A stretch of 64,000 bases of DNA from an uncultured bacterium. GTDB lineage: Bacteria; Planctomycetota; SZUA-567; JAKLDR01. The translations under genes were made by a program, and so were the position numbers. Location: assembly GCA_937935355.1 (NCBI GenBank), contig CALGYR010000143.1:8077-72076 (forward strand). The letters are read 5' to 3'. Of the stretch, positions 39,211 through 44,238 are shown piece by piece (position 1 is the first letter of the stretch; each line of letters opens with the position of its first letter). The notes beneath the pieces were generated by a model. That model was not told the DNA's origin, made no database searches, and was given only the letters and a program-made list of their open reading frames with translations.

Positions 39211-40614
39211 ATGCTCCTAACCATCACCACCACTCACCGCCCGGCCACCGACCTCGGCTGGCTGCTCCACAAGCACCCGGGGAAGTGCCAGTCGTTCGAG
39301 CTGCCCTTCGGGAAGGCCCACGTCTGCTATCCCGAGGCCACCGAGGAGCGCTGCACGGCGGCGCTGGTGCTCGACATCGATCCGGTGGGCTTGGTCCGCA
39401 AGCAGGGTGGTCCATCGGGCCGGGACTGGTCGCTCGAGCAGTATGTCAACGACCGGCCCTACGTGGCCTCGTCGTTCCTGAGCGTGGCCATCTCCCGGGT
39501 CTTCGGGACCGCCGTCTCCGGCACCTGTAAGAGTAAGCAGGAGCTCGCCGACTCGAAGCTGCCCTTCGAGGTCAAGCTCGCCGCCGTGCCCTGCCGGGGC
39601 GGGGAGACGCTGCTGCGTGCGCTCTTCGAGCCGCTCGGCTACTCGGTGACCGCCCGCCGCCACACGCTGGACACCAAGTTCCCGGAATGGGGCGAGAGCC
39701 TTTACCACACCGTGGAACTCGCCGGGACGGTGCGGCTGGCCGACCTGCTCTCCCACCTCTACGTGCTGGTCCCCGTCCTCGACGACGACAAGCACTACTG
39801 GGTGGGCGAGGCTGAGGTGGAGAAGCTCCTGCGCCACGGCGAAGGCTGGCTGGCCGACCATCCGGCCAAGGAGCAGATCGCCAGGCGGTATCTCTCGCAT
39901 CGCCGGAACCTGACCCGCGAGGCGCTCGCGCGGCTCGCCGACGAGGACGCCCCCGACCCGGAGGCCGAGGGCCGCTCGCGGGCTCGCGAGGAGGAGGAGG
40001 TCGAGAAGGCGCTCAACCTCAACGAGCAGCGCCTGGGCGCGGTCCTGGCGGCGCTCCGCTCGGCCGGCGCCCGGCGGGTGCTCGACCTCGGCTGCGGCGA
40101 GGGCCGGCTGCTCGGGAGCCTGATCAAGGACAAGAGCTTCACGGAGGTCGTCGGGCTCGACGCGTCCGTGCGGGCGCTCGAGATCGCCAAGCGCCGCTTG
40201 AAGCTCGACCGCCTCTCGCCCGCCGACCGCGAACGCGTGAAGCTCCTCCACGGGGCGCTCACCTACCGGGACAAGCGCCTGGCTGGCTTCGACGCCGCCG
40301 CGGTGGTGGAGGTCGTCGAGCACCTCGACCCGCCGCGCCTGGCGGCCTTCGAGCGCGTCCTCTTCGAGTTCGCCAGGCCCGCGGCCATCGTGCTCACCAC
40401 CCCGAACGTGGAGTACAACGCCAGGTTCGAGAACATGCCCGCCGGCAAGCTCCGCCACAAGGACCACCGCTTCGAGTGGACCCGCGCGGAGTTCCGGGCC
40501 TGGGCGGAGGCGGTTGCCGGACGCTTCGGCTACGCGGTGCGGTTCCTGCCGGTGGGGGCGGAGGACCCACAGTTCGGGCCGCCGACGCAGATGGCGGTAT
40601 TTGTGAGGGTCTGA
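39211..40614 (+). CDS. hen1: bacterial Hen1 RNA 3'-terminal ribose 2'-O-methyltransferase
   Basis: The MLLTITTTHRPATDLGWLLHKHP N-terminus is characteristic of bacterial Hen1. The C-terminal methyltransferase has the SAM motif VLDLGCGEGRLL and ...VVEVVEHLD... Confidence 0.85.
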   Translation: MLLTITTTHRPATDLGWLLHKHPGKCQSFELPFGKAHVCYPEATEERCTAALVLDIDPVGLVRKQGGPSGRDWSLEQYVNDRPYVASSFLSVAISRVFGTAVSGTCKSKQELADSKLPFEVKLAAVPCRGGETLLRALFEPLGYSVTARRHTLDTKFPEWGESLYHTVELAGTVRLADLLSHLYVLVPVLDDDKHYWVGEAEVEKLLRHGEGWLADHPAKEQIARRYLSHRRNLTREALARLADEDAPDPEAEGRSRAREEEEVEKALNLNEQRLGAVLAALRSAGARRVLDLGCGEGRLLGSLIKDKSFTEVVGLDASVRALEIAKRRLKLDRLSPADRERVKLLHGALTYRDKRLAGFDAAAVVEVVEHLDPPRLAAFERVLFEFARPAAIVLTTPNVEYNARFENMPAGKLRHKDHRFEWTRAEFRAWAEAVAGRFGYAVRFLPVGAEDPQFGPPTQMAVFVRV

Positions 40615-40624
40615 GAGGAGCCCC

Positions 40625-40834
40625 ATGGCCAACTCACGCGCCTTCAATCCCAACATGGTCGTCTCTGCCGGCACCCAGGTGGTGTCGCTGAAGGAGGTCC
40701 GCGGCACCAACGGCGCCATACTGCACCCCAGGGGCGCGGTGGGAGTCATCGTCAAGTCGCCGGTCGACAACGATCTGCTGATCAGGCTGAGGGTCGATCA
40801 TCTAGCAGACACAAGGCGCCTCGAACATGTCTGA
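40625..40834 (+). CDS. small hypothetical protein (69 aa)
   Basis: AGGAG RBS 5 nt before the ATG. Balanced composition. Its end overlaps the next start by 8 nt. Confidence 0.4.
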   Translation: MANSRAFNPNMVVSAGTQVVSLKEVRGTNGAILHPRGAVGVIVKSPVDNDLLIRLRVDHLADTRRLEHV

Positions 40835-41636: not shown

Positions 41637-41637
41637 A

Positions 41638-44238
41638 ATGCCCATCTCCATCCCCGAACTCTCCCTGGTGGTCCTGATCGGCCCCTCGGGCTCGGGCAAG
41701 AGCACCTTCGCCCGGAAGCACTTCAGGCCGACCGAGGTGCTCTCCTCCGACTTCTGCCGGGGGCTGGTCTCCGACAACGAGAACGACCAGACGGCCACCA
41801 ACGACGCCTTCGCGGTCCTCCACTTCGTGGCCGCCAGGCGGCTGGCCGCCGGGCGGATGGTGGTGGTGGACGCCACCAACGTCCAGGCCGAGGCGAGAAA
41901 GCCGCTCGTGCAGCTCTCGCGCGACTACCACGCCATCCCGGTGGCGATCGTCCTCAACCTGCCCGAGAAGGTCTGCTACGATCGCAACGCCGGCCGCACC
42001 GACCGCAGCTTCGGGCCGCACGTCATCCACCAGCAGGCCCGGCAGATGCACCGGTCCCTGAAGACCCTCCGGCGCGAGGGCTTCCGGCACGTCTTCGTCC
42101 TGGAGTCGGTCGAGGAGATGGACTCGGCTGTCATCGAGAGGAAGCCGCTCTGGACCAACCGCCGGGAGGAGCACGGCCCCTTCGACGTGATCGGCGACGT
42201 CCACGGCTGCTGCTCCGAGTTGGAGGCGTTGCTCGCCCGGCTAGGTTACGAGAAGAGCGCCCCGGCCGGCGACGGCACTGAGAGCCGCAATGTCGCGTCC
42301 GCCTGGCGCCACCCGGCAGGCCGCAAGGCCGTCTTCCTCGGCGATATCTTCGACCGCGGCCCGCGCGTTCTCGACACCTACGGCTTGGTGCGCGACATGG
42401 TCGCCGCCGGCACTGCCCTCTGCGTGCCTGGCAACCACGACGTGAAGCTGCTCCGGAAGCTCGGCGGCAAGAACGTGCAGATCACCCACGGGCTCGAGCG
42501 GACGCTCGCCGAGATCGAGGCCGTCCCCGAGGCGGAGCGCCCGGCGCTCCTCGAGGAGATGCGCGGGTTCATCGACAAGCTGGTGAGCCATTACGTCCTC
42601 GACGACGGCAAGCTGGTCGTCGCCCACGCCGGGATGCGCGAAGAGCTCCAGGGCCGCGGCTCGGCCAAGGTGCGGGATTTCGCGCTCTACGGCGAAACGA
42701 CCGGCGAGACCGACGAGTTCGGCCTGCCGGTCCGCTGCGACTGGGCCGCGGAGTACCGGGGGCGGGCCTGCGTGGTCTACGGCCACACCCCGACGCCCGA
42801 GGCCGAGTGGGTCAACCGCACCATCAACATCGACACCGGCTGCGTCTTCGGCGGCAAGCTCACCGCGCTGCGCTACCCGGAGAAGGAGCTGGTCTCGGTC
42901 CCGGCGGAGCGGACCTACTGCGAGCCGGCCAGACCTTTCATCCCGGAGGGCGGCGCCACTCCGGCGCTCTCGGCCCAGCAGGCGCTCGACGACGTCCTGG
43001 ACATCGCCGACGTGATCGGCAAGCGCATCATCCCCACGCGGCTGCATCACACCGTGACCGTCCGCGAGGAGAACGCCGCGGCGGCCCTCGAGGTGATGAG
43101 CCGCTTCGCGGCCAACCCCAAGTGGCTCATCTACCTGCCGCCGACCATGTCGCCGTGCGAGACGACGGGCCTCGCGGGGCTCCTCGAGCACCCGGCCGAG
43201 GCCTTCGCCCACTACCGCAGCCAGGGCATCGCCCGGGTGATCTGCGAGCAGAAGCACATGGGCTCGCGCGCGGTGGTGGTGATCTGCCGAGACGAGGAGG
43301 CGGCCCGCCGGCGCTTCGGCGTGGTCGGCGAGGGCGTCGGCGCCTGCTACACCCGCACCGGCCGGCACTTCTTCCCGGAGAAGGACGCGGCTGTCGGGCG
43401 GGAGTTCCTGGAGCGCGTCCGGGGGGCCGCCGCGGCCTCCGGGCTCTGGGAGGAGATGAAGACCGACTGGCTGTGCCTGGATTGCGAGCTGATGCCCTGG
43501 TCGGCCAAGGCCCAGGCGCTTCTCGAGCAGCAGTATGCCGCGGTGGGTGCCGCCGCCCGCGCCGCGCTGCCCGAGGCCGTCGCCGCCCTGGAGGAGGCCG
43601 CGGCGCGCAGCGATGGCGGCGCCGAGCTTCTCGAACGCTTCCGCCTGCGCGGGGAGATGACCGAGCGCTACGTCCGGGCCTACCAGGAGTACTGCTGGCC
43701 GGTGAAGTCGGTCGGCGACCTGAAGCTCGCGCCGTTCCACGTCATGGCGGGCGCGACGGGCGTCCACGTCAACCGCGACCACGTCTGGCACATGGATACG
43801 CTCGCCCGGCTCTGCCAGGCCGACAAGGGGCTGTTACTCGCCACGCCCTACCGCATCGTGGACGTGACCGACGAGGCCAGCCAGGCCGAGGGCGTTCGCT
43901 GGTGGGAGGAGCTCACCAGCCGCGGCGGGGAGGGCATGGTGGTCAAGCCCTTCGATTTCGTCGCCCGCGGCACGAAGGGGCTCGTCCAGCCCGCGGTGAA
44001 GTGCCGCGGCAAGGAGTACCTGCGCATCATCTACGGCCCGGAGTACGACGCGCCGGAGAACCTGGAGCGGTTGCGCTCGAGGGGGCTCGCCGGCAAGCGG
44101 TCGCTGGCCCTTCGCGAGTTCGCGCTGGGCATCGAGGCCCTGGAGCGCTTCGTCCGCCGCGAGCCCCTCCGGCGCGTCCATGAGTGCGTCTTCGGGGTGC
44201 TGGCGCTCGAGAGCGAGCCGGTGGATCCGAGGCTGTGA
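41638..44238 (+). CDS. pnkp: polynucleotide kinase-phosphatase Pnkp (5'-kinase, 2',3'-phosphatase, C-terminal ligase/adenylyltransferase domain)
   Basis: P-loop kinase VVLIGPSGSGKST. Calcineurin-like phosphatase DVIGDVHGC...GDIFDRGP...GNHD. C-terminal nucleotidyltransferase with the lysine motif CEQKHMGSRAVVV. The three-domain architecture is that of the bacterial Pnkp that partners Hen1. Confidence 0.85.
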   Translation: MPISIPELSLVVLIGPSGSGKSTFARKHFRPTEVLSSDFCRGLVSDNENDQTATNDAFAVLHFVAARRLAAGRMVVVDATNVQAEARKPLVQLSRDYHAIPVAIVLNLPEKVCYDRNAGRTDRSFGPHVIHQQARQMHRSLKTLRREGFRHVFVLESVEEMDSAVIERKPLWTNRREEHGPFDVIGDVHGCCSELEALLARLGYEKSAPAGDGTESRNVASAWRHPAGRKAVFLGDIFDRGPRVLDTYGLVRDMVAAGTALCVPGNHDVKLLRKLGGKNVQITHGLERTLAEIEAVPEAERPALLEEMRGFIDKLVSHYVLDDGKLVVAHAGMREELQGRGSAKVRDFALYGETTGETDEFGLPVRCDWAAEYRGRACVVYGHTPTPEAEWVNRTINIDTGCVFGGKLTALRYPEKELVSVPAERTYCEPARPFIPEGGATPALSAQQALDDVLDIADVIGKRIIPTRLHHTVTVREENAAAALEVMSRFAANPKWLIYLPPTMSPCETTGLAGLLEHPAEAFAHYRSQGIARVICEQKHMGSRAVVVICRDEEAARRRFGVVGEGVGACYTRTGRHFFPEKDAAVGREFLERVRGAAAASGLWEEMKTDWLCLDCELMPWSAKAQALLEQQYAAVGAAARAALPEAVAALEEAAARSDGGAELLERFRLRGEMTERYVRAYQEYCWPVKSVGDLKLAPFHVMAGATGVHVNRDHVWHMDTLARLCQADKGLLLATPYRIVDVTDEASQAEGVRWWEELTSRGGEGMVVKPFDFVARGTKGLVQPAVKCRGKEYLRIIYGPEYDAPENLERLRSRGLAGKRSLALREFALGIEALERFVRREPLRRVHECVFGVLALESEPVDPRL

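Follow-up and report, generated by a model that had tools for sequence, protein, structure and literature searches.

RNA repair cassettes that pair Pnkp with Hen1 have been described in Clostridium thermocellum and Anabaena variabilis, and the Pnkp2-Hen1(2) heterotetramer both repairs and 2'-O-methylates broken RNA (PMC3675462, PMC4411300). A further protein of relevance here is RlaP (PF10127), the 'RNA ligase-associating Pol-beta', a name attributed to Burroughs and Aravind in a preprint that cites them (bioRxiv 10.64898/2025.12.29.696909). Here we consider a hen1-pnkp locus within a 64-kb stretch of DNA (hereafter, the window), in which two small ORFs, termed ORF69 and ORF269, separate the two genes. 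We think it probable that this is an ordinary cassette in which a pair of RlaP genes has been swapped for ORF269, encoding a mobile, helical and most likely non-catalytic companion of RNA repair.

The cassette follows a larger set of repair genes, arranged in the order rtcR and tRNA-like genes, Band_7, rtcA, zf_Tbcl, rtcB, hen1 and pnkp, with further genes flanking hen1. The hallmarks of an RtcR-type cluster are present in the window: the sigma-54 activator gene rtcR (28587..30245, minus strand; Pfam RtcR E 7e-85, Sigma54_activat E 5e-50), in a region collinear with a relative locus (L011), diverges from the repair cluster, which includes rtcA for the RNA 3'-phosphate cyclase (32682..33731; Pfam RTC E 4e-79) and rtcB (35134-36528; Pfam RtcB E 4e-87). 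These two genes, like all features described below, lie on the plus strand, as do a Band_7/SPFH gene that opens the protein-coding part of the cluster (31430..32554; Pfam Band_7 E 1e-27) and a zf_Tbcl gene (34460-35137; Pfam zf_Tbcl E 2e-13). The window contains no promoter that fits a strict sigma-54 consensus. The interval between rtcB and hen1 (36527..39209) is a first variable slot, without homology to L011 or to another relative locus, L013; it holds an RNA_ligase gene identified by Pfam (36695-37507), a 258-aa ORF (37531-38307) and a Sel1-repeat gene (38341-39201; Pfam, GC3 0.69), where L011 and L013 have DUF5677 or 23S_rRNA_IVP instead.

Both genes of the cassette itself are readily recognized. 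The 467-aa product of hen1 (39211..40614), a 3'-terminal RNA 2'-O-methyltransferase with a Pnkp-activating N-terminal domain, scores 737 bits on TIGR04074 (cut-off 340), with Hen1_L spanning residues 1-243 (E 1e-117) and the methyltransferase domains after it. The 866-aa product of pnkp (41638..44238) scores 1411 bits on TIGR04075 (cut-off 750) and has kinase, phosphatase and ligase domains (AAA_33 at residues 10-142, Metallophos at 181-386 and PNKP_ligase at 482-861, the last with E 4e-183). The two genes are co-oriented and 1,023 bp apart, and between them lie ORF69 (69 aa; 40625..40834) and ORF269 (269 aa; 40827..41636), which overlap by 8 nt, leaving a gap of 1 nt between ORF269 and pnkp. 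Beyond pnkp, a consensus scan gives weak evidence for a terminator-like hairpin (44296..44319), which is likely the end of the transcription unit.

An earlier, sequence-only reading of this DNA had described the order and tight packing of these four ORFs, with which our coordinates agree, and had taken the position of hen1 before pnkp to be non-canonical, a claim that fails on synteny with other pnkp-hen1 loci. Among 80 GTDB-representative hen1 loci, made up of the top-scoring Hen1 relatives (59-69% identity) without very divergent lineages such as Firmicutes, hen1 is upstream of pnkp in every one of the 72 diverse genome loci having both genes; the same holds for four plasmids annotated in RefSeq (Leptospira, Rhodococcus, Deinococcus and Nostoc). 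Hen1-then-pnkp is the normal order, and the window's cassette is ordinary in this respect. Strict adjacency of the two genes is not universal, since a separation of at least 505 bp is seen in 21 of the 72 loci. Extra genes occupy the junction in about 29% of loci, among them RlaP, Thg1 together with a kinase, MazEF, HEAT proteins, a Shedu-like gene and others; the content varies even among genomes in which hen1 is 94% identical, and in 27 of 27 loci examined the GC content of the gap is below that of its flanks. The hen1|pnkp junction is a recurrent accessory slot with fast turnover of its content. Some of this cargo, such as MazEF and the Shedu-like gene, is clearly unrelated, so that location alone is no proof of a repair role for ORF269; this counts against such a role.

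The origin of the present junction becomes apparent from comparison with the closest relatives (Planctomycetota MAGs with Hen1 88–89% identical; L010-L013), which lack ORF269 and have the arrangement hen1–RlaP–RlaP–pnkp, also found on Deinococcus gobiensis plasmid P2. Collinearity with the nearest relatives is lost at 40771/40772 and regained at 41638, the pnkp ATG, and the 866 bp enclosed in the window (40772..41637; delimited by blastn breakpoints, junction alignments and a drop in GC to 0.57-0.61) stand where the relatives have approximately 1.54 kb, comprising the rest of RlaP-1 and RlaP-2. As the alignments indicate, the event was not a simple insertion: about 1.54 kb was lost and 866 bp took its place. 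The first 49 codons of ORF69 (40625-40771) are the 5' stub of RlaP-1, matching L011 10415-10561 at 86% identity (tblastn, E 2e-27) and L013 at 82% identity (tblastn), and its positions 40772-40834 are read from the incoming DNA, with the stop 8 nt inside ORF269. Since the Pfam RlaP domain of intact RlaP-1 begins at residue 97 (and ends at 305) and ORF69 matches residues 1-49 only, no catalytic part is retained; consistent with this, ORF69 gives no Pfam match, and a Pol-beta-type nucleotidyltransferase domain is absent. Judged from its sequence, ORF69 is the remnant of an RlaP gene, neither a member of that family nor a gene in its own right.

The sequence-only reading had proposed two inserted unknown ORFs, AT-richer than their surroundings, as either extra subunits of a variant complex or a secondary insertion. 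The composition is as it described: GC is 0.62 in ORF69 and 0.61 in ORF269 versus 0.71 in the flanking genes, with GC3 at 0.80 and 0.71, respectively, versus 0.94 and 0.96 in hen1 and pnkp. A secondary event did occur, as established by the breakpoints against the nearest relatives, and ORF269 is foreign, but ORF69 is a truncated RlaP 5' stub and the event a replacement; the notion of extra subunits fails for the remnant and retains some support for ORF269 only, from context, RlaP fusion and selection. We rejected the idea that ORF269 arrived on a transposon or insertion sequence, as no repeats were found at the 40772 and 41637 boundaries and no recombinase gene is among the ORFs of the replacement segment. 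A conserved two-gene cassette of ORF69 and ORF269 was also rejected, the ORF preceding the ORF269 homolog in L006 being 79 aa long and unlike ORF69.

ORF269 belongs to an unannotated family of 3,544 representative clusters, without a match in Pfam, NCBIfam, PADLOC or PHROG, and no relatives on viral contigs were found in IMG/VR. We defined the family from an alignment (A2) as stand-alone proteins of approximately 210-270 aa with an N-terminal CxxC, a KALTTWG..DFKHFLPRLFEL core, and conserved W113, E117, L175 and W223. ORF269 has both motifs (the CxxC at C35/C38), retains every one of the family's 12 invariant and 20 near-invariant positions, and reaches 278 bits with the profile of the family, all of which marks it as an intact member. 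Its structure model is confident and depicts an all-helical solenoid, a predicted fold that is non-enzymatic. Searching PDB sequences by profile returned nothing below E 0.27, and Foldseek against the PDB gave no match with E <0.5; likewise, Pfam HEAT models showed no match even at E 5 across 34 family members, bar one at 0.097. Kinship with the HEAT proteins that occupy the same slot elsewhere was rejected, given an hhalign probability of 0.2 against the HEAT protein of L034.

Members of this family recur beside RNA-repair genes. Of 80 metagenomic loci, 7 have a member in the hen1-pnkp interval and a further 5 have one adjoining RtcB, on either side of it; in addition, a single widespread protein joins a member to RlaP. 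A repair context was seen in none of the first six homologs sampled, and the view of ORF269 as random cargo without a repair link, based on those six, was overturned by the metagenome scan. The family is rare among hen1-pnkp cassettes, as it is found in none of the 80 GTDB-representative hen1 loci. Roughly 85% of the metagenomic loci that carry it have no repair context, and this location of most members outside such contexts speaks against a repair role. Some members lie directly 3' of HNH genes (L110, L113 and L116), another upstream of an HNH gene (L118), and one follows a HEPN_AbiV RNase gene (L095). In a neighbor-joining tree, in which deep nodes are unresolved, the members in hen1|pnkp context are scattered. 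The ORF269 homolog is AT-richer than its neighbors in eight of eight repair loci tested, as expected for mobile cargo, and family homologs are under purifying selection, with dN/dS of 0.12-0.34 at dS 0.3-0.6.

The history that we favor begins with an ordinary hen1-then-pnkp cassette, the last part of a cluster presumably under RtcR control, with two RlaP nucleotidyltransferase genes in the ancestral hen1|pnkp junction. Recombination then spared no more than 49 codons at the 5' end of RlaP-1 and set the AT-richer, foreign ORF269 flush with the start of pnkp. ORF69, which retains the RlaP ribosome-binding site and start, may only couple translation into ORF269, and the latter probably shares a transcript with hen1 and pnkp, as suggested by the spacing of the genes and the absence of internal signals. 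The family, made up of helical-repeat proteins of about 250 aa, moves laterally and recurs inside RNA-repair operons. ORF269 would most likely be a non-catalytic binding module, serving as an adaptor or regulator alongside RlaP or ligases on damaged RNA, and would probably stand outside the stoichiometric Pnkp2-Hen1(2) core. A more specific proposal, that the family is a previously unrecognized RNA-repair cofactor acting as a helical, zinc-binding (CxxC) adaptor for RlaP, Pnkp and RtcB, is one that we hold only tentatively; with its RlaP partner destroyed and no other RlaP within the 64-kb window, ORF269 is a poor fit to an obligate RlaP cofactor. If the proposal is true, such an adaptor might select or present damaged tRNA or rRNA ends, or gate enzyme activity, and the exchange of RlaP for ORF269 would mean that accessory repair functions are swapped as modules in conflicts with ribotoxins.

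The same facts on mobility could be read as hitchhiking, with ORF269 as cargo unrelated to RNA repair and the junction as an insertion hot spot in stress-induced operons. The many unrelated genes in the junction across genomes, the uniformly lower GC of the gap, the AT-richness of the family wherever tested, the unrelated contexts of most members and their scatter over the family tree when in hen1|pnkp context all fit this explanation. However, the repair linkage recurs in three forms (in the hen1/pnkp interval, on either side of RtcB and in a stable RlaP fusion), and retention under the purifying selection noted above exceeds what a neutral passenger would show, and we regard hitchhiking as unlikely. 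A somewhat more improbable reading is that ORF269 is an immunity-type inhibitor neutralizing a nuclease toxin and co-induced with RNA repair. The members adjoining HNH and HEPN_AbiV RNase genes suggest as much, as do the predicted non-enzymatic fold and a scattered, mobile distribution and fast evolution resembling those of immunity genes; yet within the window ORF269 has no nuclease gene beside it, the family's fusion partner is a nucleotidyltransferase rather than a toxin, PADLOC gives no match, and the core motif is highly conserved, whereas immunity proteins typically have variable interfaces.

That ORF269 is a decaying, non-functional leftover of a recent transfer would account for its atypical composition and for its presence, among close relatives, in the window genome only, but is very improbable in view of its full-length frame, its complete set of invariant and near-invariant positions, its confident structure model, and a start and stop placed for coupling to its neighbors. 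Hardly credible at all is a non-canonical, reversed Hen1/Pnkp system forming a larger complex with 69-aa and 269-aa subunits: four ORFs packed tightly in one orientation suggested it, but the order is the universal one, ORF69 is a stub without a catalytic domain, and the closest relatives lack ORF269.

Turnover at this junction bears on how RNA-repair systems diversify, and the window offers a clear case in which an RlaP pair has been displaced with its stub still visible. It also draws attention to a large family that has no database model and is linked by context most strongly to Hen1-Pnkp, RtcB and RlaP; should the family prove to be a real repair cofactor, it would provide a testable component for systems of which the physiological substrates and the accessory factors are poorly known.

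Compared with the bacterial Pnkp-Hen1 systems, the window has a Hen1 with both the ligase-activating N-terminal and the methyltransferase domains, a Pnkp that is trifunctional by its domains, and co-oriented ORFs in what is probably one unit; unlike in those systems, the two genes are 1,023 bp apart with a gene stub and a foreign gene between them, and the cassette forms the tail of an RtcR/RtcA/RtcB cluster rather than standing alone. With the hen1-RlaP-RlaP-pnkp variant it shares the first 49 codons of RlaP-1, but both RlaP catalytic domains are lost and an unrelated helical protein fills the slot. The resemblance of the ORF269 model to HEAT/ARM/TOG alpha-solenoids appears to be one of generic fold, without sequence relation, and ORF269 differs from them in its CxxC and distinctive conserved core. 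Band-7/SPFH, Ro/TROVE and archease proteins make up a scaffold or cofactor class in RNA-repair operons, known from comparative genomics. Archease is such an operon's cofactor (PMC3973293). ORF269 is without homology to any of the three, and the role suggested for it by context would be an analogous one: like that class, its family places a predicted non-enzymatic protein in operons of two ligase chemistries, Pnkp and RtcB.

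The repair cassette in the window is a standard Hen1-Pnkp cassette within an RtcR-type cluster. Four tightly packed genes lie on the forward strand: hen1 (39211-40614), ORF69 (40625-40834, 69 aa), ORF269 (40827-41636, 269 aa) and pnkp (41638-44238). The identity of the outer two is unambiguous: Hen1 matches TIGR04074 (737 bits) and contains the Hen1_L domain, and Pnkp matches TIGR04075 (1411 bits) and contains AAA_33, Metallophos and PNKP_ligase domains. ORF69 and ORF269, which overlap by 8 nt (ATGTCTGA), have no match in Pfam, NCBIfam, PADLOC or PHROGs, and a single base separates the ORF269 stop from the pnkp ATG. 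The sequence-only reading had placed and spaced these genes correctly, and had rightly noted that the middle pair is AT-rich: GC dips to 0.57-0.61 there versus a window mean of 0.67, and GC3 is 0.80 for ORF69 and 0.71 for ORF269 versus 0.94 for hen1 and 0.96 for pnkp. Its further claim, that hen1 preceding pnkp is non-canonical, does not hold; the order is ordinary. We used a Hen1 alignment to search GTDB genomes, each species represented once, and retained the 80 top-scoring loci. These are the ones closest to the query (59-69% identity, a range that does not reach very divergent lineages such as Firmicutes), and they span Acidobacteriota, Planctomycetota, Cyanobacteria (including Nostoc, Trichormus and Aliinostoc), Myxococcota, Verrucomicrobiota, Chloroflexota, Gemmatimonadota, Poribacteria and others. 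A pnkp gene was found at 72 of these 80, in every case co-oriented with hen1 and downstream of it, never upstream; RefSeq annotation shows this order also for plasmids of Leptospira noguchii, Rhodococcus opacus, Deinococcus gobiensis and Nostoc commune. In an Abditibacteriaceae MAG (L031) the 10 kb to each side of hen1 lack pnkp, as do the 5.6 kb upstream and the 10 kb downstream of hen1 in a Frigoriglobus MAG (L056).

The window differs from its nearest relatives in the content of the hen1-pnkp gap. The nearest Hen1 relatives (P0045, 89% identity, from the Planctomycetota MAG GCA_022703445.1, loci L010-L012; then P0046, 88%, locus L013) lie in a supercluster of divergent rtcR, Band_7, rtcA, zf_Tbcl, rtcB, a variable gene, hen1, genes for the PF10127 nucleotidyltransferase RlaP, and pnkp. 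This backbone recurs in the window, where Pfam confirms RtcR, Band_7, RTC, zf_Tbcl and RtcB, and the window is collinear with L011 in six blocks of 82-87% nucleotide identity. The block that begins at the hen1 start extends to position 40771, 147 nt into the first of two RlaP genes, and collinearity resumes at 41638, the pnkp ATG. Residues 1-49 of ORF69 match the N-terminus of L011 RlaP-1 (86% identity, E 2e-27) and that of the L013 RlaP (82%). Because only this N-terminus is matched and the RlaP domain (residues 97-305 of the intact protein) is entirely gone, ORF69 is a stub of RlaP-1 whose last 20 codons come from incoming DNA. The 866-bp segment at 40772-41637, which holds ORF269, replaces about 1.54 kb comprising the rest of RlaP-1 and all of RlaP-2, and no further RlaP is encoded within the 64-kb window. 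The RlaP pair of this lineage was thus recently displaced by a foreign gene. Where two unknown inserted ORFs had been proposed, ORF269 is indeed foreign and ORF69 is a remnant; and of the two explanations then offered, extra subunits or a secondary insertion, the L011 breakpoints support a secondary event, in the form of a replacement. The segment has no terminal repeats at its ends and no recombinase gene. On the right it abuts the conserved 5' end of pnkp exactly, which might reflect recombination anchored in pnkp and an illegitimate join on the left, a conjectural route.

Across the survey, the hen1-pnkp junction behaves as an accessory slot. In 51 of 72 loci no more than about 330 bp (often -1 to 75 bp) separate the two genes; the other 21 (29%) have gene-bearing gaps of 505-2814 bp. 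The gap is AT-richer than its flanks in 27/27 loci examined. Its contents include one to three RlaP nucleotidyltransferases, HEAT_2 proteins, a Shedu SduA_C-like protein, an AAA_15/21 ATPase with DUF3226, an Mrr_cat-TPR protein, PhyH, and several uncharacterised proteins. A 149-aa AAA_33 kinase with a Thg1/Thg1C-like enzyme recurs in Nostocales (Trichormus, Aliinostoc) and further genomes (L045, L046, L037, L052) and may be another RNA-repair accessory module. MazE/MazF (PemK) pairs or a lone MazE occur in Microcoleus and other cyanobacteria (L067, L080, also L065, L071), placing an RNase toxin within an RNA-repair cassette.

Gene content turns over fast elsewhere in the cluster as well. In locus L180, hen1 is 94% identical in DNA to that of the window, yet homology ends at the hen1 stop, where yet another uncharacterised gene follows; upstream, a 23S_rRNA_IVP-like gene stands where the window has Sel1. 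The rtcB-hen1 interval (36527-39209, forward strand) is a second variable slot: its RNA_ligase (PF09414), 258-aa ORF (no family match) and Sel1-repeat gene (GC3 only 0.69) are all missing from L011, and relatives carry DUF5677 (L010-L012) or a 23S_rRNA_IVP-like gene (L013, L180). A third indel within the same operon is the 200-aa ORF between rtcA and zf_Tbcl (33861-34463, forward strand; no family match), missing from L011, where those two genes lie 8 nt apart.

The cluster is headed, in the rtcR-Band_7 intergenic region, by four forward-strand tRNA-like genes identified by ARAGORN: Thr-tgt (30521-30592), Leu-gag (30589-30672), Cys-gca (31186-31259) and Arg-gcg (31265-31340), two of which match the Rfam tRNA model. 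Comparative genomics has linked tRNA-like RNAs to Band-7/RtcB operons. Directly 3' of pnkp, also on the forward strand, an AAA_21/AAA_15 ATPase (44471-45685; PADLOC HEC-01A, 352 bits), preceded by a sigma-70-like promoter match at 44401-44428, and a DUF4276 protein (45695-46327; HEC-01B, 217 bits) match the PADLOC candidate defence system HEC-01; in L060 a similar ATPase is paired with DUF3226 inside the hen1-pnkp gap. A Schlafen AlbA_2/HATPase_c_4/HTH protein (46866-48308) and a Volactin-family protein (48489-49931) follow on the same strand, giving the region the look of a conflict or defence island.

ORF269 itself is intact and belongs to a real family. Word-indexed searching returned 42 homologs (31-54% identity) from Chloroflexota, Chryseobacterium, Micromonospora and metagenomes, none with a Pfam domain and all annotated as hypothetical, and an HMM scan of 1.84 billion representatives returned 3,544 clusters at E ≤1e-3 (1,310 at ≤1e-30), nearly all stand-alone proteins of 210-270 aa. 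The family alignment shows a near-invariant CxxC (C35, C38), a strongly conserved core KALTTWG..DFKHFLPRLFEL at residues 66-86, and conserved W113, E117, L175 and W223, all retained in ORF269. A confident AlphaFold2 model (pLDDT 89.8, pTM 0.90) is all-helical, with 13 helices. No kinship with the HEAT proteins of the same slot elsewhere was detectable, and no member was found on viral contigs.

The first six homolog contexts contained no repair genes (the homologs follow DUF58-VWA, precede an N6_N4 methyltransferase or lie amid small uncharacterised ORFs), a view revised by scanning metagenomes with the family alignment. Absence from all related hen1-pnkp loci, which together with degraded frames the sequence-only reading would have counted against the inserted genes, describes the best 80 hen1 genome loci (0/80), but the best 80 metagenome loci include seven with a homolog between hen1 and pnkp (L097, L098, L108, L123, L125, L133, L146), and the ORF269 frame is intact. 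The order is hen1, homolog, RlaP, pnkp in L146 and RtcB-Hen1-homolog-Pnkp in L133. In five more of these 80 the homolog adjoins RtcB (HNH-homolog-RtcB in L110, L113 and L116; RtcB-homolog in L102 and L104), and at many repair-context junctions the genes overlap by 4 nt or are 6 nt apart. Of the 28 loci with 1 kb or more of flank on each side, 8 are in a repair context, as are about 9 of 71 metagenome loci once near-duplicates are removed. In L097/L098 only the C-terminal ~200 Pnkp residues (query 664-865) are detectable after hen1 and the homolog, and the cassette may be degraded or rearranged.

The homologs from hen1-pnkp contexts are mutually 31-42% identical (L108/L133, at 80%, excepted) and fall at at least six places on the poorly resolved family tree, on which the RtcB-linked members form one clade. 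In 8/8 repair loci tested the homolog is AT-richer than its neighbours, by 6-13 GC points and 9-26 GC3 points. In P0215 (558 aa), the family domain (7-250) is fused to an RlaP domain (267-504, E 6e-45). The protein occurs identically on contigs of two samples, and its 90% cluster holds 20 variants, mostly 558 aa, several on many contigs, which rules out an assembly artefact. The gene (L178, L179) stands alone between alanine racemase and ABC-transporter genes, and a 319-aa cluster member (Candidatus Segetimicrobium / ANGP1) is labelled merely "nucleotidyltransferase" at NCBI. The family recurs in RNA-repair operons, is laterally mobile and retained under selection there, and also occurs fused to RlaP; the loss of RlaP in the window argues against an obligate partnership.

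ORF269 is probably co-transcribed with hen1 and pnkp, since no promoter or terminator consensus was found from hen1 to pnkp, spacing is tight, and a terminator-like hairpin follows pnkp at 44296-44319; the ORFs may also be translationally coupled. The predicted solenoid fold with its conserved patch suggests a non-catalytic binding role. As the family accompanies both Pnkp, a 5'-phosphate ligase, and RtcB, a 3'-phosphate ligase, whatever it does should not depend on end chemistry; end modification fits less well than regulation or the selection or presentation of substrates. That ORF269 is simply a hitchhiker in an insertion hot spot seems unlikely to us, although many unrelated genes occupy the slot: where related genomes both keep the homolog, its dN/dS of 0.34, 0.12 and 0.14 (0.06-0.08 for hen1 and rtcB) points to purifying selection. 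We regard as somewhat less probable still an immunity-type inhibitor of nuclease toxins, a reading suggested by HNH nucleases, recurrent neighbours of the family, and a single HEPN_AbiV; the other recurrent neighbour is DUF58-VWA, in one clade (L002-L005, L109, L126, L128) that always follows a 439-448-aa DUF58 + VWA_2 protein at 1-8 nt.

The Hen1-Pnkp cassette, to which that of the window belongs, is already known, as is the hen1-RlaP-RlaP-pnkp variant of its nearest relatives, from which the window differs by displacement of the RlaP pair. RlaP takes its name from contexts of this type and was recently characterised biochemically (bioRxiv 10.64898/2025.12.29.696909). Relative to these systems, three things appear new: a large unannotated family with context and fusion links to RNA repair (which Burroughs and Aravind 2016 may name otherwise), the hen1-pnkp junction documented as a hypervariable accessory slot, and the displacement of RlaP with a visible stub.
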